From Candidatus Cryosericum sp. (GTDB lineage: Bacteria > Caldisericota > Caldisericia > Cryosericales > Cryosericaceae), in contig JBNAWM010000023.1 of NCBI GenBank assembly GCA_049699855.1, forward strand, positions 1 through 16,845: DNA of 16,845 bases, read 5' to 3'. The stretch's first letter is position 1, and each line of letters begins with the position of its first letter. The notes beneath the pieces are model-generated. The model worked only from the letters and a program-made list of their open reading frames with translations. It had not been told where the DNA came from and made no database searches. This document shows positions 2,624-14,660 of the stretch, one piece after another. A program made the translations under genes and the position numbers.

Positions 2624-2725
2624 TTGTTTGTGTGGCGCTTTTGACAAGCATGATGTTCGAACGGCTTTGGTGACCGGGTTCCAATCTACCAATGCTGTTG
2701 AAAGTACGCGTTGGAGGCGCATGAC

Positions 2726-3427
2726 ATGAATACGAACAGATTAGTCAAGTTTATCGCAGTGAGCATAGTACTACTTCTCATTATCTCTGTCGGTGAATAC
2801 CTTTTGTTTAGGCCGGCCACTACACCCCAGCCGAACGAATCAGACGTCAACGCTATCTACCAGGTTGTCGGCGAGTTCGGCGCGCGTCTCAAGGATGTGC
2901 CAGACAGTAGTGACGCGTCTCTGGCTCTTCTGATCAAAGAAAAGGGAGTCGGCGTTCGTGTCGTTGACGGCAAAAGGGTACTGCATACAGCGGATGGACG
3001 GGATCTCCCAATAGCCAAGGGAAGTGACGGGAAGGAAACCGTTAATATAAACAAATACGAAGCCAGTTACGTTCAGGACGAGCTGAATTATCAGCACGAT
3101 ATCGTGCGGCATGAGATGAGTGCTCGTACGGTTTCTGGCGTTGATGCAAACCTGAAACGATTCATCACCGCCCGCCTCTACCAAGAGTTTACGACCTATA
3201 CAGACATTGTTCCCGGGAAGCCCGTTTCTGGACTATATCCCGGGAGTATCAGAATTGACTCCCTTCAGAAGATAGACGACGTCTCATACACAGTAAAGGG
3301 AAGTCTCATTTTGACGAGCGGAACGCAGACATCGCAGAACGGCAGTGCAGGAGAAAAACCCATCACGCTTTCGCTCAAGAAGGTGAGTGGCAGGTGGCTG
3401 ATCGATGACGTGGTCGGCGGAACGTAG
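2726..3427 (+). CDS. Hypothetical membrane-anchored extracytoplasmic protein, possibly NTF2-like C-terminal fold
   Basis: GGAGG at 2713-2717, ATG at 2726. N-terminal hydrophobic helix FIAVSIVLLLIISVGEYLLF; C-terminus ITLSLKKVSGRWLIDDV. Confidence 0.7.
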   Translation: MNTNRLVKFIAVSIVLLLIISVGEYLLFRPATTPQPNESDVNAIYQVVGEFGARLKDVPDSSDASLALLIKEKGVGVRVVDGKRVLHTADGRDLPIAKGSDGKETVNINKYEASYVQDELNYQHDIVRHEMSARTVSGVDANLKRFITARLYQEFTTYTDIVPGKPVSGLYPGSIRIDSLQKIDDVSYTVKGSLILTSGTQTSQNGSAGEKPITLSLKKVSGRWLIDDVVGGT

Positions 3428-3481
3428 CCAAAGGCATGAACCGGGCAGCGGAGTAGCTCATATTGTGTGTTGGAGGCAGCA

Positions 3482-3907
3482 ATGAGAGACGGGAGACGAG
3501 CAAGAACAATCATGTGGGTGTCTTTGTGGGTCGTATTCGTCGGCATATGTCTGTACTTTTTCTCACATTTCCCCCCGAAAACGGCGACGCTCAGCGGTTC
3601 GTCCGCGCACTGGAAAGCGGAGGATGTTGTTTATGTGCAGAAGCTGGACAGCAATTTCCGAACAGCTTCCGTTAGTGAGCTGAAGGTCTGGTGGATGGGG
3701 ACTCCGCGTGAATTCAATCATGTTGAATATGAGATCAGTGGATTGCATGGGAGCATCATGAAAGGAAACGGTGCGTCCGGATCATTCAATCCATGGGTGA
3801 CTCGACTCACCGACATTCTCCTTTCCGAGCCGCAACTTGAATATGGACTGGTTGTTACCATCACCTTGGACGGCAGCACTGAGACAATTCACCTTCGGAG
3901 GCAATAG
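3482..3907 (+). CDS. Hypothetical protein with a single N-terminal TM helix
   Basis: GGAGG at 3472-3476, ATG at 3482. Basic N-terminus followed by IMWVSLWVVFVGICLYFF and a beta-rich soluble region. Confidence 0.65.
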   Translation: MRDGRRARTIMWVSLWVVFVGICLYFFSHFPPKTATLSGSSAHWKAEDVVYVQKLDSNFRTASVSELKVWWMGTPREFNHVEYEISGLHGSIMKGNGASGSFNPWVTRLTDILLSEPQLEYGLVVTITLDGSTETIHLRRQ

Positions 3908-4145
3908 ATGAGAAGCGCTTGCTGGTTGGGGTCAAACGATACTAAATGGGTGACGTGGTTCAAATCCTCCATGGGGTATTTTGGTAGTATGAGGGTTATC
4001 ACACCATGATGATTACGGGCTACGGGAATGGTGGTGATTTTCTCCTTTCCTATCATACTACGGCAGCACTTGACAATCCGCTTCATACGATCGCCAGCGG
4101 CTACAATTCTCTTCTCTGGGAGTTCAAGTTTTTCCGGATGGGGCA

Positions 4146-4665
4146 ATGAACAAACGGTTTCTTCTTGTGATCGCTCTTGTTGTTCTTATTGTGATCGTCT
4201 TCGCAATAGGATTGAGCCCTTATGCGTGGATTACATCGAAGGAATTGGCCGCAAGACTTCATGGACCGTCCGCAGTGCAGCAGGATGTGATCCAGGCATA
4301 CTATGTGATTCAGGCATACTATAAGGCTCTTGACACTTGCGATGTCAAAGCCTGTGAAAAGCTGGCCGTTGGGGGGGCCTGGCGGCAACCCTCAGTGGGC
4401 ATTCAACGGATTGTGGCCGAATGAGAACATTCAGTGGGCAAAACTACTCTATATCAGTGGTCCGTTCCCTGCAAACGAAGGCGATGCTTACAAGCACGGT
4501 CCGGTCGCTTACCTGAAGTCAAAGCCAGCTGAGCTTGTAGAGTTCCGTGTTAAGGAGGTAATAAAGCGCAAAGACCAGAGGTGGCCTGATACAGATTTCA
4601 AAACCATTTTAATGATTAAGGAAACCAAAGATTCAAACTGGCTCATTGCTGCAGTAGGCTATTGA
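4146..4665 (+). pseudogene. Frameshifted gene for a membrane-anchored DUF4829/NTF2-like protein
   Basis: ORF 4146-4424 (signal anchor MNKRFLLVIALVVLIVIVFAIGL) and the +1-frame ORF ending at 4665 (...KTILMIKETKDSNWLIAAVGY) join into one 172-aa protein if the G7 run at 4371-4377 is read as G6. Confidence 0.7.
4285..4322 (+). repeat. 18-bp in-frame tandem duplication
   Basis: ATGTGATCCAGGCATACT / ATGTGATTCAGGCATACT followed by AT, encoding VIQAYY-VIQAYY. Confidence 0.9.
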
Positions 4666-4943: not shown

Positions 4944-5420
4944 CTAGTGTCCCTTGCCGGCGATCATCTCCAGGGCGTGCGGAAGCAGGGGGATGAGCAC
5001 GTCCATTCCATCCTCTACCGCGTGAAGGCTGCCAGGAAGGTTGATGATAAGGGTCGTGCCCCGCAGGCCCGCTTCGGCACGCGAGAGACAGGCGGTGGTG
5101 ACGCCTTTGTTGAGACCGTACAGGCGGATGGCCTCACTGATGCCGGGGGCGCGGCGGTCGATGACCGAGAGCGTTGCCTCGGGGGTGACGTCGCGAGGGG
5201 AGAAACCCGTGCCGCCGGTGGTGATGATGATATCCACGTTGTGGCTGGTGGCCCACTTTTCAATGATTTCGGCTATCTCCATCTGCTCGTCGGGGACGAT
5301 GGTCATCTCGTCGATGGTCCAACCGGCTCCCTGCAGCCGTCCTGCAATGAAGGGGCCGCTTTCGTCCACGCGGGTCCCTGCGGCACAACTGTCACTGACC
5401 GTCAAGACTGCTGCTTTCAT
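4944..5420 (-). CDS. mog: Molybdopterin adenylyltransferase, MogA/MoaB family
   Basis: Motifs LTVSD...DESG, TTGGTGFSPRDVTPEAT, SRAEAG and INLPGS. ATGA overlap with the upstream MOSC gene. Confidence 0.92.
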   Translation of the reverse strand: MKAAVLTVSDSCAAGTRVDESGPFIAGRLQGAGWTIDEMTIVPDEQMEIAEIIEKWATSHNVDIIITTGGTGFSPRDVTPEATLSVIDRRAPGISEAIRLYGLNKGVTTACLSRAEAGLRGTTLIINLPGSLHAVEDGMDVLIPLLPHALEMIAGKGH

Positions 5421-5872
5421 GAGGTTTCTCCTTGGTCGATGATGGTGATGCTATCCCCGGCCTGGATTGTGCCGGGTGTGAGGACGCGAGTGAAGATGCC
5501 CTCACGGGGCATGACGCAGTCACCGACCAGGCGGCGGACTTCACAGTCCAGGTGACACGTTTTGCCGATCTGGGTGACCTCCATGATGACGGCAGGTCCA
5601 ACCTGAAGCCGTGTTCCGATAGGCAATACCGGAAGGTTCAGGCCCTGCGTCGTGATGTTCTCGGCGAAGTCGCCGGGCTGGAGGACCATGCCGTGACCCT
5701 GCATCTTGTCGATACTCTCCTGTGCCAGCAGGCTGAGCTGACGATGCCAGTCGCCTGCGTGGGCGTCTCCTTCGATCCCCAGCATGGTAATGGTGACAGG
5801 GCCCTGCAGTGTGTGTTTGCGCTTTCCCCTCTGCTCTGAGATGTTGATTGCTACAACTGTTGGCTTGCTCAT
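5417..5872 (-). CDS. MOSC domain-containing protein
   Basis: Start MSKPTVVAINISEQRGKRK at 5872 (ATGA overlap with the moaC stop, GGAGG SD). Motifs GIEGDAHAG.WHRQLSLL, PGDFAENITT and EVTQIGKTCH...CVMPREGIF. Confidence 0.9.
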   Translation of the reverse strand: MSKPTVVAINISEQRGKRKHTLQGPVTITMLGIEGDAHAGDWHRQLSLLAQESIDKMQGHGMVLQPGDFAENITTQGLNLPVLPIGTRLQVGPAVIMEVTQIGKTCHLDCEVRRLVGDCVMPREGIFTRVLTPGTIQAGDSITIIDQGETS

Positions 5873-6351
5873 GTTTCCTCCCAGGTTCCACTCTGTCCGC
5901 CGCTTTTGCGGACAAGACGGAGATCGGTGATGCGGATGCCGCGCTCGACTGCCTTGCACATATCGTAGACCGTGAGGGCAGCGGTCGATGCTGCTACCAG
6001 TGCCTCCATCTCGACCCCTGTGTCTGCCCTGGTGCGAGTCGTTGCCTCGATGTCAACGCTGTGGTCCTTTTCATTGAGGGTCAGGACCAGGCCGGCAAAG
6101 GTGAGGCCAATGGGATGGCACAGCGGGATCAGTTCCCACGTGCGTTTGGCAGCCTGTATGCCTGCGACTTGAGCAACAGTGAGGACGTCGCCCTTCTTGA
6201 GATTGCCTGCCTTGACCAGGTCAAAGGTCGCCGGTGCCAGCAGGACGCGGCAGCGGGCAATGGCCTCCCGGACCGTCTCGGGCTTGCTGCCCACGTCTAC
6301 CATGCGCGCGTTGCCCTGCTCGTCCAGGTGTGTCAGTTCGTTGCTTCCCAT
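5869..6351 (-). CDS. moaC: Cyclic pyranopterin monophosphate synthase MoaC
   Basis: Motifs LTHLDEQGNARMVDV, KKGDVL, LIPLCHP, TGVEMEAL, YDMCKA and KSGG. Confidence 0.96.
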   Translation of the reverse strand: MGSNELTHLDEQGNARMVDVGSKPETVREAIARCRVLLAPATFDLVKAGNLKKGDVLTVAQVAGIQAAKRTWELIPLCHPIGLTFAGLVLTLNEKDHSVDIEATTRTRADTGVEMEALVAASTAALTVYDMCKAVERGIRITDLRLVRKSGGQSGTWEET

Positions 6352-6352
6352 G

Positions 6353-7318
6353 TTATCCTCCTATGCTTCCCATGGCACGTCCGTAGTCGAGAGCTGACGC
6401 TGGCATACACCGTGGTTTCTCACGCATGGCGCGCTCCAGCAGGGCGAGCAGAGCTTGTTCATCGACCGTGGGACGCAGTGCTGGTTTCACATCGATCTCG
6501 TCCGGTCCAAACAGGCACAGCCGCAGATGCCCGTCGGCGACAAGGCGCAGGCGGTTGCAGGTGGGGCAGAAGTGCTCGGTCATGGGCGCAATGATCGCTA
6601 CGGTCCCAGGAGCTCCCGGGATGCGGCGGTAGTCCTGGGCTGGGCCGTTACCCCGCGGCTTGTCGGCTGGTTCCAGGGTCGCCAGTGCCTCCAGCTTGCG
6701 GCGCAATTCGGCGGCAGGAACAAGGTAGTGATCCTCGCCCAGCGGGCCAATAGGCATGTATTCGATGAAGCGAACCTCGACCGGCAGACGCCTGGTGAGG
6801 TCGAGGAAGGGCGCCAGATCGTCGTTGATGCCTCGCAGAACCACCACGTTCAGCTTGATCGGACTGAATCCATTGTCGAGGGCCGCCGAGAGACCTGCGA
6901 GAGCAGCGTCCAGCGAACCAAGACGCGTAATGTAGCGGTAGACAGAGGAATCGAGAGACGGCAGGCCGATGTTTACCCTTGTCAGCCCTGCTTCCTTGAG
7001 TTGCGGAGCAAGCTGGGGCAGAAGGATGCCATTCGTCGTGATCGAAAGGTCCGTGAGCCCTGGAATGGCCACCAGCATGCGCACCAGATCAACAATGCCG
7101 GGGCGGTGCAGGGGTTCGCCGCCGGTGAGGCGCACCTTGACGATGCCTTGAGAGACGGCAACGCGCATGAAGGCGGCGATCTCTTCAAAGCGCAGGATAT
7201 CCTCATGGTCCAGCATGGGGACACCCTCCTCGGGCATGCAGTAGCGGCAGCGCAGGTTGCAGCGGTCGGTGACGGAGATACGGATGTAGTCGATGGTGCG
7301 TCCGATGTTGTCGATCAT
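6353..7318 (-). CDS. moaA: GTP 3',8-cyclase MoaA (radical SAM)
   Basis: YIRISVTDRCNLRCRYCMP (CxxxCxxC), RLTGGEP, RFIEYMP, FCPTCNRLRL...LC and C-terminal IGG. Confidence 0.97.
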   Translation of the reverse strand: MIDNIGRTIDYIRISVTDRCNLRCRYCMPEEGVPMLDHEDILRFEEIAAFMRVAVSQGIVKVRLTGGEPLHRPGIVDLVRMLVAIPGLTDLSITTNGILLPQLAPQLKEAGLTRVNIGLPSLDSSVYRYITRLGSLDAALAGLSAALDNGFSPIKLNVVVLRGINDDLAPFLDLTRRLPVEVRFIEYMPIGPLGEDHYLVPAAELRRKLEALATLEPADKPRGNGPAQDYRRIPGAPGTVAIIAPMTEHFCPTCNRLRLVADGHLRLCLFGPDEIDVKPALRPTVDEQALLALLERAMREKPRCMPASALDYGRAMGSIGG

Positions 7319-8547
7319 CAGTGGTCCTCCGGCAGGCTGATGAGCTGAACATTGACAGTCTGCCCTGCTTCAACGACGGGTCTGTCTTCGGGGACGACAG
7401 CTATACCCATGGCAAGCGCCATGGATGTCAGAATGCCGGATCCCTGGGGACCGGTGAGGCGGGCATGCAGTGTTTGATCATGTTCCTCCAGGAGCACCCG
7501 GACGAAGTGCGCCCGCCCTGCATCCGATCCCTTGGCGTAGCGTTCGTCAAAGACCGCTGAGCGCACGGGGCGGTACAGCAGTGTGTGGCCCATCATCTTG
7601 CGGACCATGGGGCGTACATATTCCTCGACCCCCACCATGCAGGATACGGGGTTGCCGGGCAGACCGACGATCCGTTTGGAGCCCATTGTCCAGAATGCCA
7701 TCGGTTTGCCGGGCTTCTGATTGACTCGCCAGAAGACCAGTTTCGCCCCCATCTGCTCAAGGACTTCTTTGACAAAGTCGTAGTCGCCGGCTGACACGCC
7801 GCCATTGGTCAGCACGATGTCTGCCTGTGCCAGTGCCAGCTCGAGAGCGGTGCGCACGGCTTCGGGCGTGTCCGGCACGCGGGCAAAGACCAGCGGTTCG
7901 GCGCCGATGGAGGCGACCTGAGCGCGCAGAGAATGGGCGTTGGCGTCGCGGATCTGTCCTGGCCCGGGCACCTGGCTCGCGTCGACGAGTTCACTGCCCG
8001 TGGTCAGGATGGCCGCTCGTATGCGCGGGTAGACGGTGACCTCCATCTGACCCGCCGCGGCACAGACGCCAATTTCGGCAGGATTCAGCAGTGTGCCGGC
8101 CGCAAGCACGGTTGTGCCATCCTTCATGTCTTCTCCCGCCCTCCGCACGTTGGCGCCCTTCTTGAGTGCCAGCAGGACCAGAACATCGTCGCCCTGGGTA
8201 GTGGTCACCTCGAAGTGGACAACGGTGTCAGCGCCGTCCGGAAGGGGGGCGCCGGTCATGATACGAATGGCGGTGCCGGGACGGACGGATTGCGTTGCGA
8301 CGCTGCCTGCGGAGACATTCTCCAAAACGTGCAAGCGAACGGGCCTGGCCTCGGATGCCTCGCTGATGTCTCCTGCCAGAACGGCAAAACCATCCATCGC
8401 AGAATTGGCAAACGGCGGCACGTTGCCGCGCGCAATGACATCCTGAGCGAGCACCAGCCCCGCCGCTGCGTCCAGTGGCATGGTGACGGGCGGTAGCAGT
8501 GAAGCGTGTTGCAGCATCGTATCAAGTGCTTCTTGTATGTTTAGCAT
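7318..8547 (-). CDS. moeA: Molybdopterin molybdo/tungsto-transferase MoeA (gephyrin-like)
   Basis: Motifs PPFANSAMDGFA, IMTGAPLPDGAD, TGSEL, GQIRDAN, GGVSAGDYD, KPGKP and LPGNPVS. SD GGGAGGAG precedes the ATG at 8547. Confidence 0.95.
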   Translation of the reverse strand: MLNIQEALDTMLQHASLLPPVTMPLDAAAGLVLAQDVIARGNVPPFANSAMDGFAVLAGDISEASEARPVRLHVLENVSAGSVATQSVRPGTAIRIMTGAPLPDGADTVVHFEVTTTQGDDVLVLLALKKGANVRRAGEDMKDGTTVLAAGTLLNPAEIGVCAAAGQMEVTVYPRIRAAILTTGSELVDASQVPGPGQIRDANAHSLRAQVASIGAEPLVFARVPDTPEAVRTALELALAQADIVLTNGGVSAGDYDFVKEVLEQMGAKLVFWRVNQKPGKPMAFWTMGSKRIVGLPGNPVSCMVGVEEYVRPMVRKMMGHTLLYRPVRSAVFDERYAKGSDAGRAHFVRVLLEEHDQTLHARLTGPQGSGILTSMALAMGIAVVPEDRPVVEAGQTVNVQLISLPEDH

Positions 8548-8591
8548 GATTTCTCCTCCCACAGATGTGTGTCAACTGCGTTTTTTTCATG

Positions 8592-9377
8592 TTACACAAG
8601 CAGCTCACCTGCAATGAAGCGGCGAGTCTGGTCATCACGCGGGTCTGAGAAGAACGCTTGGCGTGATGCCTGTTCAATAATGCGCCCTTGATGCAGGAAG
8701 GCCACCTGGTCAGCGATGCGGCGGGCCTCAAAAATATCCTGTGTGACAAGGATGATCGTCATGCCAAGACCATCACGCATGTGGAGTAGAAGGTCCTCCA
8801 GCAGTTTTGTTCCATACGGATCCAGGCTTGCAGACGGTTCATCCAGCAGAAGGAGACGCGGCTGCAGGGCAAGAGCGCGTGCCAGTGAGAGACGCGCCGC
8901 TTCGCCGCCGGAAAGGGATGAGGCATGCTGATGAGCGCGTTCAGCGATCCCGACCTCCTGCAGGGCAGCCATGGACGTTGCCTCTGCCTCGGCACGGGTT
9001 ACGCTGCGCAGCAGCAGCCCGTAGGTCACGTTGCTGAGGACCGAAGCATTGAAGACTGTCGGATGCTGGAAAGCCAGCATCATCTGGCGCCGCAGCTGCA
9101 GTGCATTCTGGTCCCGGGCAGGGTCTGTGGCCGTGGCGCCAAAAGTGAACGCTGGTGCGTCCGGGACGATGCCATCGTAGCAGAGGGTACCACCGTCAGC
9201 GGGTTCCAGCAATCCCAGGATACGCAGGAGGGTCGTTTTGCCGGCACCGTTGGTGCCAAGGATGACGGTGATGCTCCGGGGTGGAGCACCGAGGTCGATG
9301 CTCCGCAGTACCTCGCGTGTGCCGAAGCGCTTCGAGACACCTTTGACGGTGACCAGGTCAGTCGAGATGGCGGACAT
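8592..9377 (-). CDS. tupC: ABC transporter ATP-binding protein, tungstate uptake (TupC-like)
   Basis: Walker A GTNGAGKTT, Q-loop AFQHP, signature LSGGE, Walker B LLLLDEP. Follows tupB; GGAGG precedes the ATG at 9377. Confidence 0.85.
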   Translation of the reverse strand: MSAISTDLVTVKGVSKRFGTREVLRSIDLGAPPRSITVILGTNGAGKTTLLRILGLLEPADGGTLCYDGIVPDAPAFTFGATATDPARDQNALQLRRQMMLAFQHPTVFNASVLSNVTYGLLLRSVTRAEAEATSMAALQEVGIAERAHQHASSLSGGEAARLSLARALALQPRLLLLDEPSASLDPYGTKLLEDLLLHMRDGLGMTIILVTQDIFEARRIADQVAFLHQGRIIEQASRQAFFSDPRDDQTRRFIAGELLV

Positions 9378-10077
9378 TGCCGGCCTCCGATGTTCCCTCT
9401 CCAAGGCGGGACAGCAGTACGTTCACAAAGAACGACACGACTAACAGAATGATGCCCAGTGCAATGGCGCGATCAAAACTTCCTTCCCGGGTTTCAAGCA
9501 CGAGCGCTGTGGTGAGGGTCCGGGTTGAACCCTGGATGTTGCCGCCCACCAGCATGGCAGCGCCCACCTCGCTGATGGCGTTGCCGAATGCAGTAATGAC
9601 TGCGCCCAGAATGGCCAGGCGGGCTTCGCGCACCAGAGCGATCGATGCCTGCGGGCGCGTGGCGCCAAGCGTGAGCGCCAGGTCAACAATGCCTTTGTCG
9701 GCACTGCGCAGTCCAAGGACAGTGAGGCCAATGATGACTGGGAGTGCCAGGGTGATCTGAGCCAGCACCATGGCCGTTCGGGTATACAGCAGTCCCAGCG
9801 GTCCCAGGGGACCGCTGCGCGACAGCAGGAGGTAAACCAGGAGTCCCGCTACCACGGGCGGAAACCCCATCAGCGTGTAGATGACGTTCATAATGGCCTG
9901 CTTGCCTGGGAAATGCTTGAAGGCGAGCAGGATGCCAAGTGGAAATCCCGCAAGTGCCGACCACAGGAGAGCACTCATAGTGACAGCGAGGGACGTCGCC
10001 AGGGCCTGGTAGGTGTCAGGATCCAGCGAAACAATGAGTCGGATCGCCTGAACGAATCCCCGGCCGATATCACCCAT
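9358..10077 (-). CDS. tupB: Tungstate ABC transporter permease TupB
   Basis: TupB-type motifs LMGFPPVVAGLLVYLLLSRSGPLG and ISEVGAAMLVGGNIQGSTRTLTTA; several TM helices. Confidence 0.9.
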   Translation of the reverse strand: MGDIGRGFVQAIRLIVSLDPDTYQALATSLAVTMSALLWSALAGFPLGILLAFKHFPGKQAIMNVIYTLMGFPPVVAGLLVYLLLSRSGPLGPLGLLYTRTAMVLAQITLALPVIIGLTVLGLRSADKGIVDLALTLGATRPQASIALVREARLAILGAVITAFGNAISEVGAAMLVGGNIQGSTRTLTTALVLETREGSFDRAIALGIILLVVSFFVNVLLSRLGEGTSEAGNVRHLD

Positions 10078-10103: not shown

Positions 10104-11915
10104 TTATTTCTGGATTTGGACTTTGTAGATGTACTTGATGCTGTTCACCAGGAATGCCCCCCTGGTTGTCATGAGTGCCATGAAGCCATCGTTGGTCGAG
10201 AGTGTTGCTCCATTCTTGAGGTAGACGATGGTGATCTTCGTGCCGGTGCGTGCGTTGTAGATGTCGTCATAGCTCAGCGTGACGTGGCTGCCATCCGTTG
10301 CCGTCGCAATGACGGTGAGACGCTTTGCGGATGCTAGATCGGGAGAGATTACCTTCAGGATATCGATGAGCTGGACGCCGCCATAAGGGACAGGAGCCAG
10401 CGACTGGTTATTCTGAGGGTAGACGTTGATCGTCGTCACGGGGAACTTTCGCACGTCGTTCAAGCGGTAGGTGACCTGCCTGCCCGTCGGAAGTATGATA
10501 TCAAGACTGCGCGTGGCCTTCCACTCGGTGGAGTCTGGAAAGAACAGGCTCTGGCCGTACTGCTCGACGCCAAAGCTCTTGATCAGCTCCTGACCGGGCA
10601 GTCCCGTCATGAAGTCGGCGAAACGGACCGCGAGGTCGACCTTGACCGAGGGGTACTTGGCGGGGTTGACGGGCATGAGGCCATAGCGATTAAGCAGTCC
10701 CTGGGATCCCTGAACAAGGATCGGCAGATGGATCTTCCCACTGTTTTCGTAGGAGAGATACGTGGCGCGGTCCGTCAGCGTATACGCCTGTTTCTGGTCG
10801 GCCATCATGAGGACTTCACCCATGCCTTGCCCTGCACTCACATACCAGGAGTTGCCTGCAGGTTTGATGCCGGCGGATTTCCAGATGTCATTCTCTTTCG
10901 TATTTGTCCCTGAGTTGTCGCCACGGCTGATGAAGGTCGAGCCGGAGGCTGCGAGCTTCGTGAAGGCGGCGGTCGCATCCGTCATACCCTTGATTCCCGC
11001 AGGGTCACTGGCTGGTCCTATGATAATGAAGTCGTTGTACATGACGTCATCGCGGAAGAGGCCAAAGCCATCGGCCATGAACTGGTCTTCCTGGGCACGT
11101 GCATGAACGAGCAGGACATCTGCATCCCCCTTGCGTCCGGTCGCGATTGCCTGGCCGGTACCAACAGAGATGATCTTGACGTTGACGTGGTTGGACTTCT
11201 CGAATATGGGGATCAGGAAGTTCAAAAGTCCCGAATCATAGGTGGAGGTCGTCGTCGCAAGAATCATTGACTGCGTCGCGGGTGCCTTGTAGTTGAGCAT
11301 GGCAGGGAAGTAGGCTGCAGTCTGGGCGCGGGTGATAGCCGAGCCTGGTTTGGTCACATCCTGGACCATACCTTCCTGCACGCACGCGGCTGCAGCTGTC
11401 CGAGCCCACTCTGAAAGGCCATCTGCGCCGGCAACCTTGTCCAGGATGACGTGGGTCGCCATGCCACGGATCTCAAACCCCATGCGCTGTGCGACGACAG
11501 CCATCGACTCTTCTCGGGTGATGCTTGCCGTGGGGTGGAACGTTCCGTCCGGGTACCCGGAGATCCAGCCCTTGGCGACGGCGGCATAGACGAGAGGAGC
11601 AGCCCAGTTGACTATTGGCAGGTCCTTGAACGTTTTGGCAGGCGACTGCACAGGGTCGAGCCCGGCAGAGCGTGCAAGAGCGACGACGAACTCGGCGCGG
11701 GTGATGGGAGCGTTGGGGCGGAAGGTTCCATCCGGATATCCCTTCATGAACCCTTTGGCAACGACTCCCTCGATGATTGCCTGATCAGAACGCCCAGTGA
11801 TATCGGACAGTGATGTGGCACGGGCCGGGAGGGCGGATGCCATGGGCAGAAATGCAAGAATGAGTGCGACCGCAAGGATGCGGCGGACCAACAGACGTGA
11901 CAGACTTTCTTTCAC
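10104..11915 (-). CDS. tupA: Tungstate-binding protein TupA fused to N-terminal SLH domains and an extra C-terminal domain
   Basis: GTG start at 11915 after AAAGGAG; signal peptide ending A-R-A. SLH repeats (KGYPDGTFRPNAPITRAEF; SGYPDGTFHPTASITREE; degenerate third). TupA motifs LATTTSTYDSGLL, GTGQA, DVLLVHA, YNDFIIIGP, SRGDNSGT, GQGMG and YTLTDRATY. Confidence 0.9.
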   Translation of the reverse strand: MKESLSRLLVRRILAVALILAFLPMASALPARATSLSDITGRSDQAIIEGVVAKGFMKGYPDGTFRPNAPITRAEFVVALARSAGLDPVQSPAKTFKDLPIVNWAAPLVYAAVAKGWISGYPDGTFHPTASITREESMAVVAQRMGFEIRGMATHVILDKVAGADGLSEWARTAAAACVQEGMVQDVTKPGSAITRAQTAAYFPAMLNYKAPATQSMILATTTSTYDSGLLNFLIPIFEKSNHVNVKIISVGTGQAIATGRKGDADVLLVHARAQEDQFMADGFGLFRDDVMYNDFIIIGPASDPAGIKGMTDATAAFTKLAASGSTFISRGDNSGTNTKENDIWKSAGIKPAGNSWYVSAGQGMGEVLMMADQKQAYTLTDRATYLSYENSGKIHLPILVQGSQGLLNRYGLMPVNPAKYPSVKVDLAVRFADFMTGLPGQELIKSFGVEQYGQSLFFPDSTEWKATRSLDIILPTGRQVTYRLNDVRKFPVTTINVYPQNNQSLAPVPYGGVQLIDILKVISPDLASAKRLTVIATATDGSHVTLSYDDIYNARTGTKITIVYLKNGATLSTNDGFMALMTTRGAFLVNSIKYIYKVQIQK

Positions 11916-11918
11916 TGC

Positions 11919-12012
11919 TTCTCCTTTCCACAATGGGAGGCGCGGCCGTTTCCCGCCGTACCCTGCCGGCTGCACGCCATGGCTTGCGCCGAAGGACGGA
12001 CAGCTCGAAGAA
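11919..12012 (-). ncRNA. Moco RNA motif riboswitch, P3-less (tungsten cofactor-type) variant
   Basis: The minus strand reads UUCUUCGAGCUG...CAGCCGGCAGGGUACGGCGG-GAAA-CGGCCGCGCCUCCCAUUGUGGAAAGGAGAA. It has the conserved CAGGG, the GNRA-capped P4 and the GCCUCCC...GGAAAGGAG 3' end. P1 (UUCUUC/GGAGAA) covers the tupA SD. Confidence 0.88.
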
Positions 12013-12038
12013 TCTTGCCTGCACCAGCAGACAGGAGT

Positions 12039-12066
12039 AGTATAAACACAGCTCTCTCCAAGGCAA
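12039..12066 (-). promoter_or_regulatory. Putative sigma70 promoter of the tup/moa operon
   Basis: Minus strand TTGCCT, 16-nt spacer, TATACT, with a predicted start about 20 nt upstream of the riboswitch. Confidence 0.6.
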
Positions 12067-12197
12067 GAATTTCTGCACCGATTGGATATGTCCTCGCTTA
12101 GAAGAGTAGCTTTCGTTCTGGATTTTTTCCTGTATTATGGTATCAGAATCTTGGCGAATGTTGCCGGATCGACCTTATTTGAAAGGAGGATTTACTG

Positions 12198-14660
12198 ATG
12201 GCAGAACAGGTGGAGCCATTATCTCTTTCGTCCAAGGATGCTCAGCAAATGACTATCGACGAGGTCTTTGCCAAGCTCAATTCCACTGCTGCAGGACTCA
12301 GTGCCTCAGAAGCAAAGGAGAGATTGGAGCGGTACGGGGCCAACGAAATCACTGAGAGGAAGGTCAGTCCGATCGTGAAGTTCCTGGGATATTTCTGGGG
12401 TCCAATTCCCTTTATGATTGAAGCTGCTTCCATCCTCTCTCTTTTGAATCACAAGCTTCCGGACTTTTTCGTCATCCTGACACTGCTTCTTGTGAATTCG
12501 ATTGTGGGATTCTGGCAAGAGAACAAGGCTGGCAATGCCATTGAAATGCTGAAACAAAAGTTGGCCATCGTTTCAAGGGTACTGCGTGATGGCCAGTGGC
12601 AGCAGATCGCTGCAAAGGAACTGGTTCCAGGCGATGTCATCCGTGTCCGCATGGGCGACATTGTACCCGCTGACATCAAGCTCATCGAGGGCGACTATTT
12701 GACGGCAGATGAGTCCATGCTTACCGGAGAGTCGCTTCCAGCCGAGAAACACGTCAATGATGTATGCTATTCGGGCTCCGCTGCGAAGCAAGGCGAGATG
12801 AACGGAGTTGTCATAGCTACAGCAATGAACACATATTTTGGAAAAACAGCAAAACTTGTTGAAGAGGCAAGGACAGTCAGTCACTTTCAAAAAGCGATCC
12901 TCAAGATTGGCGATTTCCTGATCGCGGCTGCGATCGGGCTTGGAGTATTAATTCTCCTTGTTTCCATGTTCAGACATGAGCAGCTGACGAACACCATCAA
13001 TTTCCTGCTGGTCCTGACGGTCGCATCCATTCCGGTGGCCTTGCCCGCGGTCCTTTCGGTAACGATGGCGGTGGGTGCAATTGAACTGGCAAAAAAGGAA
13101 GCGATTGTCAGCAAACTTGTTGCAATAGAAGAAATGGCCAGTATGAACGTGCTCTGCTCCGATAAGACAGGGACGATCACTGAGAACAAACTGACGCTTG
13201 CAGAGATTGAACCTTTTGGTGATTTCACGGAGGAAGATGTCTTGTTGTATGGCGCTCTTGCGTCGAGATCCGAGGACAAGGATCCGATTGACGACGCAAT
13301 TCTGGATAAAGCCCACCAAACGCAACGAATCACCGATATTCTAAAGGCGCTTTCTATCACAAAATTCGATCCTTTCGATCCAGTTTCCAAGCGCACGAAA
13401 GCAACAGTGCAGGATGGAGCGGGCAAGACTTTTGAGGTGGCAAAAGGGGCTCCGCAGGTGATTTTGTCGCTGATTAAGAGCGGAGAACAGCTGGAAGCAA
13501 AAGTCAATGACACAGTTGACAGCTTCGCTCAGAAAGGGTATAGGGCACTTGGAATTGCCAAGACTCTCGACGATGGGACATGGGCCTTTCTGGGCATTAT
13601 TCCGCTCTACGATCCTGCCCGCGAGGACTCTGCTTCGACGATCGAAACTGCCAAGGCAATGGGAGTCGATGTTAAGATGGTGACCGGGGACCATGTTGCC
13701 ATTGCCAAAGAGATCGCCAGAAAAGTCGGCCTTGGTACCAATATTGTCGCTGCTGGTGATTTTCTGGACAAGTCAGACAGCAACGCGACAAGCATTGTGG
13801 AAAGCGCAGACGGGTTTGCACAGGTATTCCCTGAACAGAAATATCACATTGTGGAACTACTGCAGGCCAAGGGATACTTCGTAGGAATGACGGGAGATGG
13901 GGTAAATGATGCTCCCGCTCTGAAGAAAGCAAACGTGGGAATAGCCGTTGCTGGGGCCACCGATGCCGCAAAATCCGCTGCAGCCATTGTTCTGACACGC
14001 CCGGGGCTATCGGTGATTATAGACGCAATAATACAGGCGCGGATGATCTTCCAGAGGATGACGAACTATTCCATATACAGAATCGCTGAGACCATCCGGG
14101 TCCTGCTCTTTATCACAACTTCTATTATCGTGTTCGATTTCTATCCGATCACGGCGCTGATGATTGTGCTTCTTGCACTTCTCAACGATGCACCGATCAT
14201 GACGATTGCATTTGATAACGTCAAATACTCAGACCAGCCCGAACAGTGGAACATGAATAAGCTCCTTTCTGTTTCGGCAATGCTTGGCATCGTCGGGGTC
14301 TTTTCATCTTTCGGGGTACTCTACATCGGAAGAGAAGTCTTTCACATGAACACTAACATACTGCAGGCGTTCATATACCTGAAATTGTCGGTTGCCGGTC
14401 ACCTGACGGTTTTCGTGGCGAGAACCAAAGGCCATTTCTGGTCAATAAAACCTGCAAAATCGCTCTTTCTGGCGGTTATCATTACGCAGACTATTGCTAC
14501 CCTTATTGCAGTGTACGGGGTGCTCTTCCCTCAACCGCTGGGTTGGAAATTCGCTGGATTTGTCTGGGCGTATGCCCTTGTCATGTTTGTGGTGACTGAC
14601 TTCCTGAAGGTGTGGTTTTATAAGCTAATTGACACATCCGACATCCATTTCAGGAGATGA
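12198..14660 (+). CDS. Plasma-membrane proton-efflux P-type ATPase (type IIIA)
   Basis: Motifs FWGPIP, LTGES, IPVALPAVLSVTMAVGA, CSDKTGT, KGAPQVI, MVTGD, TGDGVNDAPALKKA, YRIAETIR and LLNDAPIMTIAFD. SD AAAGGAGG. Confidence 0.95.
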   Translation: MAEQVEPLSLSSKDAQQMTIDEVFAKLNSTAAGLSASEAKERLERYGANEITERKVSPIVKFLGYFWGPIPFMIEAASILSLLNHKLPDFFVILTLLLVNSIVGFWQENKAGNAIEMLKQKLAIVSRVLRDGQWQQIAAKELVPGDVIRVRMGDIVPADIKLIEGDYLTADESMLTGESLPAEKHVNDVCYSGSAAKQGEMNGVVIATAMNTYFGKTAKLVEEARTVSHFQKAILKIGDFLIAAAIGLGVLILLVSMFRHEQLTNTINFLLVLTVASIPVALPAVLSVTMAVGAIELAKKEAIVSKLVAIEEMASMNVLCSDKTGTITENKLTLAEIEPFGDFTEEDVLLYGALASRSEDKDPIDDAILDKAHQTQRITDILKALSITKFDPFDPVSKRTKATVQDGAGKTFEVAKGAPQVILSLIKSGEQLEAKVNDTVDSFAQKGYRALGIAKTLDDGTWAFLGIIPLYDPAREDSASTIETAKAMGVDVKMVTGDHVAIAKEIARKVGLGTNIVAAGDFLDKSDSNATSIVESADGFAQVFPEQKYHIVELLQAKGYFVGMTGDGVNDAPALKKANVGIAVAGATDAAKSAAAIVLTRPGLSVIIDAIIQARMIFQRMTNYSIYRIAETIRVLLFITTSIIVFDFYPITALMIVLLALLNDAPIMTIAFDNVKYSDQPEQWNMNKLLSVSAMLGIVGVFSSFGVLYIGREVFHMNTNILQAFIYLKLSVAGHLTVFVARTKGHFWSIKPAKSLFLAVIITQTIATLIAVYGVLFPQPLGWKFAGFVWAYALVMFVVTDFLKVWFYKLIDTSDIHFRR

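Follow-up and report, generated by a model that had tools for sequence, protein, structure and literature searches.

The 16,845-nucleotide stretch of Candidatus Cryosericum DNA analysed here (hereafter the window) contains, just upstream of a tungstate-uptake gene, a compact element that a sequence-only reading had proposed to be a Moco-family RNA lacking the P3 stem. This raises the question of what the element is, which cofactor it would sense, and whether it would switch the genes behind it off or on. The family assignment is borne out by a covariance-model scan (cmscan, Rfam), which places the aptamer on the minus strand (a strand that the sequence-only reading had left unnamed) with a match to RF01055 at 12022-11905 (-), scoring 55.0 bits (E 5.2e-11) against a gathering score of 36 and spanning the full length of the model (model positions 1-135). 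The P3 columns of the RF01055 alignment are nearly all gaps, so the P3 stem is absent and the copy falls outside the P3-containing Moco subtype; P2 runs directly into P4 through a 5-nt CGGCA junction (11968-11964), as had been proposed. The proposed ends and approximate length hold as well, 11919 and 12012 being the two ends of P1 and the element measuring 94 nt.

The aptamer (11919..12012, -) is assigned to the P3-less Moco/Tuco riboswitches (RF01055) from the Rfam match and from covariation. P1 pairs UUCUUC (12012-12007) with GGAGAA (11924-11919) in six pairs, including one G-U, and P2 (12004-11969) consists of a GCUG/CAGC outer helix and an inner GGC-GCAA-GCC hairpin. P4 (11963-11938) carries a GAAA loop and is followed by P5 (11937-11928). 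The Moco-motif junction of P1, P2, P4 and P5, with its conserved GA, AGGG, CCU and AAAG, is found; there is an A-C mismatch within P4, while all invariant positions are retained. The GNRA loop on P4 (GAAA) and the P2 receptor are predicted docking partners, the latter being a variant form, CCUUCG/CAUGG, found genus-wide in place of the usual CCUAAG/UAUGG.

The structural evidence for this aptamer is comparative. Folded as a single sequence, the minus-strand element is no more stable than its shuffles (z 0.18), and single-sequence stability is therefore left out as support. When 45 of the 55 copies found in this genome and its relatives are aligned (10 copies directly preceding genes for aldehyde:ferredoxin oxidoreductase, AOR, which have a shorter P2, were omitted), 89.9% of cells pair, 23 of the 32 pairs vary on both sides, and none of 500 shuffles matches this. 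Versions with the structure slid along the alignment pair only 39.5-51.5%, a comparison biased in favour of the tested structure, which was derived from the Rfam alignment of the tupA-leader copy. An element on the plus strand was ruled out, its fold giving no structure signal (z -0.60), and a weak match to sR35 (E 0.19) was attributed to chance.

Downstream of the aptamer lies the tightly packed tupABC-moeA-moaA-moaC-MOSC-mog operon of the sequence-only reading, its eight genes recognized by profiles and all on the minus strand. The first, tupA (10104..11915, 603 aa), encodes a signal-peptide-like N-terminus, SLH domains, a TupA tungstate-binding domain and a C-terminal Oxidored_molyb-like domain. 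It matches NF041772 (209 bits, below the cut-off of 400), PF12849 and PF00395; its binding domain has a match in 3LR1, a tungstate binder of solved structure (E 5.7e-85), and a PDB sequence search found nothing for its C-terminal domain. It is followed by a tupB-like permease (9358..10077; NF038017 above cut-off, NF041773 at 169 bits, below the cut-off of 320) and an ABC ATPase (8592..9377; PF00005), which is tupC by position, no tupC-specific model being among the 25 best matches listed. Next come the metal insertase moeA (7318..8562) and the GTP 3',8-cyclase moaA (6353..7318; TIGR02666 above cut-off), then moaC (5869..6351; TIGR00581 above cut-off), a MOSC-domain protein (5417..5869; PF03473) and a mog/moaB-type molybdopterin adenylyltransferase (4944..5420), moeA and mog being assigned by profile matches. 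The gaps between these genes are, in order, 26, -20, 29, -1, 1, -1 and -4 nt.

The signal region of this SLH-fused TupA contains no cysteine, and Cu_amine_oxidN1 domains replace SLH in four of six WtpA relatives; both kinds of binder seem wall-tethered rather than lipid-anchored. Elsewhere in the window, the intergenic region that holds the tup promoter is bounded on its other side by the gene of a divergent P-type ATPase of the plasma-membrane proton type (12198-14660, +; TIGR01647, 1045 bits). At 2711-4665 (+) there are four short ORFs whose products begin with hydrophobic stretches and match nothing in Pfam; two of them (4146-4424 and 4330-4665) share sequence in different frames, and the pair may represent a single gene with a frameshift.

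For the aptamer to act on this operon it has to be transcribed with it. A sigma-70-type promoter is predicted at 12039..12066 (-), with a -35 element TTGCCT (12066-12061) and a -10 element TATACT (12044-12039), the only such site against a shuffle mean of 0.3, which would set transcription start at ~12033-12032, upstream of the aptamer. The same pattern precedes 21 of 22 same-genus copies in front of tupA or aldehyde dehydrogenase (ALDH) genes, and because this predicted promoter is conserved, the aptamer is probably inside the tup transcript. Between the putative start and P1, a 5' leader hairpin, P0 (12016..12033, -), is predicted; it is conserved in the genus with a variable loop and some compensatory changes, recurs at -5.0 to -13.0 kcal/mol in the folds predicted for all 21 leaders in which the promoter pattern is present, and may protect the 5' end.

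The ribosome site agrees with the proposal that P1 pairs with the Shine-Dalgarno sequence (SD). The GGAG of tupA (11921..11924, -) is itself part of the P1 3' strand, which couples the expression platform to the aptamer, and it stands 5 nt upstream of a GTG start at 11915 that opens the signal-peptide-like N-terminus; the start codon in the same place is ATG in all 18 other tupA copies. The predicted probability that the SD is unpaired is 0.22-0.26, and over 21 genus copies it ranges from 0.22 to 0.99 at one tested start, at which the present copy has the lowest value, 0.22. Opening the ribosome site is predicted to cost 7.7 kcal/mol, versus 1.7-5.5 kcal/mol in the other 30 copies with this layout, and the aptamer fold is predicted to be ~6 kcal/mol less stable than the unconstrained ensemble. 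A search of 11800-12250 gave no terminator-like site; a hairpin following P1 (-10.7 kcal/mol) has no U-run and was rejected as a terminator.

My preferred reading, to which I give a probability of about two in three, is that the tupA leader is a P3-less Moco/Tuco switch in which binding of the tungsten-pterin cofactor locks P1, hides the SD and blocks translation of the operon. Transcription would start near 12033, so that the aptamer is transcribed, and RNA free of ligand would leave the SD partly open. The cofactor would bind the four-way junction, aided by docking of the GAAA loop into its receptor, and would stabilize the weak 6-bp P1 and thereby hide the SD. The block could then reach the downstream genes by translational coupling, through their overlapping stops and starts, or by polarity, on which the available text of PMC3766115, PMC9971707, PMC11477304, PMC10265488 and PMC7653027 holds nothing. 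In favour of this reading are the lack of a terminator in the leader and, as a link to tungsten, the TupA domain, which is nearest a solved tungstate binder. Against it, other copies surpass the present one, which has a score of 55 bits, a P4 mismatch, a GTG start and the poorest predicted SD access. The OFF switch on W-pterin envisaged by the sequence-only reading is backed in its layout, its operon and its upstream promoter, while W-pterin as ligand is suggested by gene association, in a genome that also has Mo-type enzymes.

Gene association is also what ties the published subtype to tungsten. The Moco RNA motif was defined by Regulski et al. (2008; PMC2408646), and in the accessible part of that paper 58 of 176 examples lack P3 and are linked to tungsten genes, direct binding could not be demonstrated, and deletion of P3 abolished regulation. 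This agrees with the statement of the sequence-only reading that P3-less variants are tungsten-associated and that their direct binding is poorly validated. A review (PMC10265488), in the portion available, gives binding of the tungsten cofactor as fact, citing Regulski et al. and a second source.

Which metal is concerned can be approached from the host genome (assembly 97.9% complete, with two RF01055 copies). Tungstoenzymes of the AOR and formate dehydrogenase types, proposed earlier as a check, are represented by four AOR-family (AFOR_C) genes and by two DMSO-reductase-family genes that are formate-dehydrogenase-like by their N-termini. Tungstate transport or tungsten enzymes would be expected in a host of the P3-less subtype, and here there are a TupA domain and the four AFOR_C genes. 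The genome also holds two genes of the xanthine-oxidase family, which is Mo-only. MoaA, MoaC, MoeA and Mog occur once each, all in the tup operon, and the sole SBP_bac_11 match in the genome is the TupA of this operon; ModA has no match in the genome and WtpB none above cut-off. Because of the two xanthine-oxidase-family genes and the lack of a ModA match, the tup-moa operon probably also serves molybdenum enzymes. MoaE was not found in the genome, and the MOSC protein (5417-5869) may stand in for it. Two ThiS/MoaD-like genes adjoin AOR and xanthine-oxidase-family genes.

Among relatives, 55 copies of the RNA were found in 31 of 61 genomes, 51 of them above cut-off, and P3 is absent in all 55 (54 aligned together, the remaining one separately). 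The first downstream gene, labelled from N-terminal likeness (with Pfam scans of 21 of the 55 proteins and NCBIfam scans of 9), is TupA in 19 cases, a ferredoxin followed by AOR in 11, AOR in 10, WtpA in 6, ALDH in 5, P5C dehydrogenase in 2, and an ECF S-component and another binding protein in 1 each; one 'TupA' ORF ends at 217 aa, several ORFs run off their loci, and locus L058 was left out of the gene-order analysis. An AOR-family gene is present in 30 of the 31 RNA-bearing genomes and the RNA in only 1 of 25 AOR-less genomes, six genomes having AOR without the RNA. In one family (f2), xanthine-oxidase-type genes occur in 9/9 genomes, AOR in 1/9 and the RNA in 0/9, and two genomes (G026 and G038) have the RNA and AOR with no xanthine-oxidase-type gene. 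This co-occurrence points to tungsten, resting on about five families whose members are kin and not independent.

These patterns bear on an alternative that I hold to be unlikely, in which the same OFF switch answers to any metal-pterin (Mo or W) or to metal-free molybdopterin, the loss of P3 relaxing rather than reversing metal discrimination. In a genome with one oxyanion binder and no second MoaA/MoaC/MoeA/Mog set, a tungsten-only OFF switch could starve the Mo-type enzymes, and a broader ligand would suit an operon that holds the only pterin pathway and the only oxyanion importer found in the genome. It would also suit the genus as a whole (23 genomes), where xanthine-oxidase-family genes occur in 23/23 and ModA in 1/23. 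WtpA, before which six relatives place the RNA, binds both tungstate and molybdate, and one genome (G022, 79% complete) has the RNA and ModA with no AOR match; moreover, within its accessible part, PMC2408646 assayed no natural P3-less RNA. However, across families the RNA follows AOR and not the Mo-type family, and a xanthine-oxidase-family gene is first downstream in 0/55 copies. According to the available text of PMC11725836, two operons led by P3-less RNAs go up under tungsten limitation, yet iron transporters are unchanged there.

The expression platforms were analysed for all 55 copies. For TupA, WtpA, ALDH and the other binding protein, 31/31 copies have the SD as the P1 3' strand and a start codon 3-6 nt further on, and these 31 are predicted to be OFF. 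Where an AOR operon follows, P1 leaves the SD out in 21/21 copies. All ten direct-AOR copies can form a hairpin (-11.7 to -17.4 kcal/mol) from sequence that includes all six P1 3' bases, and 6-8 of 10 bases after this hairpin are T, whereas OFF-type copies have no hairpin below -10.7 kcal/mol at that place. Since formation of P1 would break this terminator, the direct-AOR copies are predicted to be ON. These copies (L046-L054, L031) have GCAA or GUAA loops and lack the P2 receptor, and so make up a short subtype of their own that goes with the competing terminator.

The 11 ferredoxin-AOR copies are less clear-cut in folding. Their SD is predicted to pair with the CCUCC of the aptamer at a probability of at least 0.85 in six, and with the aptamer forced, the ribosome site is predicted to open at a lower cost in nine and at a higher cost in two. 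SD-CCUCC complementarity is present in all 11, which is weak evidence because CCUCC belongs to the aptamer core and matches any GGAGG. The second copy of the host genome is of this kind: it is P3-less, lies before a 4Fe-4S protein and AOR (G000:C43:11118-11235; L001:1501-1618, -), has an AAAA loop where GAAA is usual, and has its SD outside P1. Forcing the aptamer barely changes its opening cost, from 7.2 to 6.5 kcal/mol (it is one of the nine), and ON wiring is possible, though marginal in folding. The genome thus holds one copy of each placement, with the SD inside P1 at tupA and outside P1 at the ferredoxin-AOR operon.

A two-way tungsten-cofactor regulon built on one aptamer would account for both placements, and I consider it slightly better than an even bet. 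Bound cofactor would turn off supply (Tup or Wtp uptake and pterin synthesis) together with a metal-free backup NAD aldehyde dehydrogenase, and would turn on AOR, by unmasking the SD in the genus and by breaking a terminator in the sister family. The aldehyde-dehydrogenase arm is seen only in relatives, because no NAD aldehyde dehydrogenase was found in the present genome. All five full-length ALDH genes of the genus lie behind a copy of the RNA. In three genomes they directly precede the tupA copy and have their own promoter pattern, and these ALDH copies could originate from a duplicated leader, against which counts the presence of copies before two unrelated P5C dehydrogenases in another family. 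In those two genomes (G026, L055:5192-5289, -; G038, L033:534-627, +), the SD held in P1 belongs to a mini-ORF of 13 codons, hydrophobic and ~100 nt before the P5C dehydrogenase, possibly a leader-peptide-coupled control. In G026, genes for an ECF S-component and an [FeFe] hydrogenase follow another copy (L032:524-3114, +), perhaps a further metal-independent electron route under cofactor control. In G028 (L060:508-2040, +), a copy precedes an operon with a PF01497 (iron/cobalamin-type) binding protein, which echoes the iron transporters described in the available part of PMC11725836.

The range of platforms also speaks to whether the RNA senses its ligand at all. The chances are slim that it is instead a conserved site where a protein that senses the cofactor docks, as the conserved core is combined with three platforms (a competing terminator, and the SD either within or outside P1), an arrangement typical of ligand-binding aptamers, and the unpaired junction bases are invariant. 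What such a protein has in its favour is that PMC2408646, in the part available, left a protein factor possible, and that a literature search, with most subscription journals outside its scope, found no direct-binding study (and nothing that describes ON wiring or control of ALDH). I give no more credence to the idea that the tupA-leader copy is degenerating or switches poorly, with its ribosome site kept partly closed by another fold whether or not ligand is bound, since its low SD accessibility and high opening cost come from equilibrium folding, which disregards tertiary contacts and co-transcriptional folding, and its P4 mismatch and GTG start stand against kept invariant positions, a P1 with 6/6 pairs, an intact promoter and a score far above cut-off.

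The tupA-leader element alone is an expected annotation, and the predicted two-way regulon is the more useful result. In the literature covered, the proposed sensing of a tungsten cofactor by P3-less Moco-family RNAs has been based on gene association since 2008. Near-identical aptamers predicted to be OFF at supply genes and ON at AOR within one genome offer opposite responses that would control for general metal effects. If correct, the regulon would be a tungsten-dependent isoenzyme switch, and the OFF/ON pair a self-controlled test of the P3-less ligand, in a lineage whose one pterin pathway for W- and Mo-type enzymes makes it well suited to testing metal selectivity.

The RNA of this locus is a genuine and ordinary P3-less Moco/Tuco riboswitch, whose subtype and link to tupABC are already published (PMC2408646, PMC11725836, in the parts available; the comparisons below refer to the same parts). 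It shares with the P3-less Moco motif of PMC2408646 the helices P1, P2, P4 and P5, the GAAA loop and receptor, and the link to tungstate-transport and pterin-synthesis genes, and differs from it in the CCUUCG/CAUGG receptor, the conserved P0 before P1 and the SLH-fused TupA as first gene. In the E. coli moaA riboswitch the SD likewise lies within P1, moaA/moaC-type genes follow, and expression is repressed by the molybdate-derived cofactor and not by the tungstate-derived one (PMC2408646), which resembles the translational OFF predicted here. Unlike the present locus, E. coli has P3; here, uptake and synthesis are joined in one operon, in a genome with no moaE detected. A further parallel is Eubacterium limosum, where five P3-less Tuco copies are described; the operons that they precede include tupABC and WOR1, the latter for a tungsten aldehyde oxidoreductase, and the action proposed is translational (PMC11725836). 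As here, copies precede both tupABC and a tungsten aldehyde oxidoreductase operon within one genome, and the WOR1 copy, with its GCAA loop and short P2, resembles the direct-AOR copies. For E. limosum tupABC a separate sequestor hairpin is proposed, whereas here P1 itself masks the SD, and the copies before NAD-dependent aldehyde dehydrogenases and the P1-competing terminator are features of the present lineage that the available text of PMC11725836 does not describe for E. limosum.
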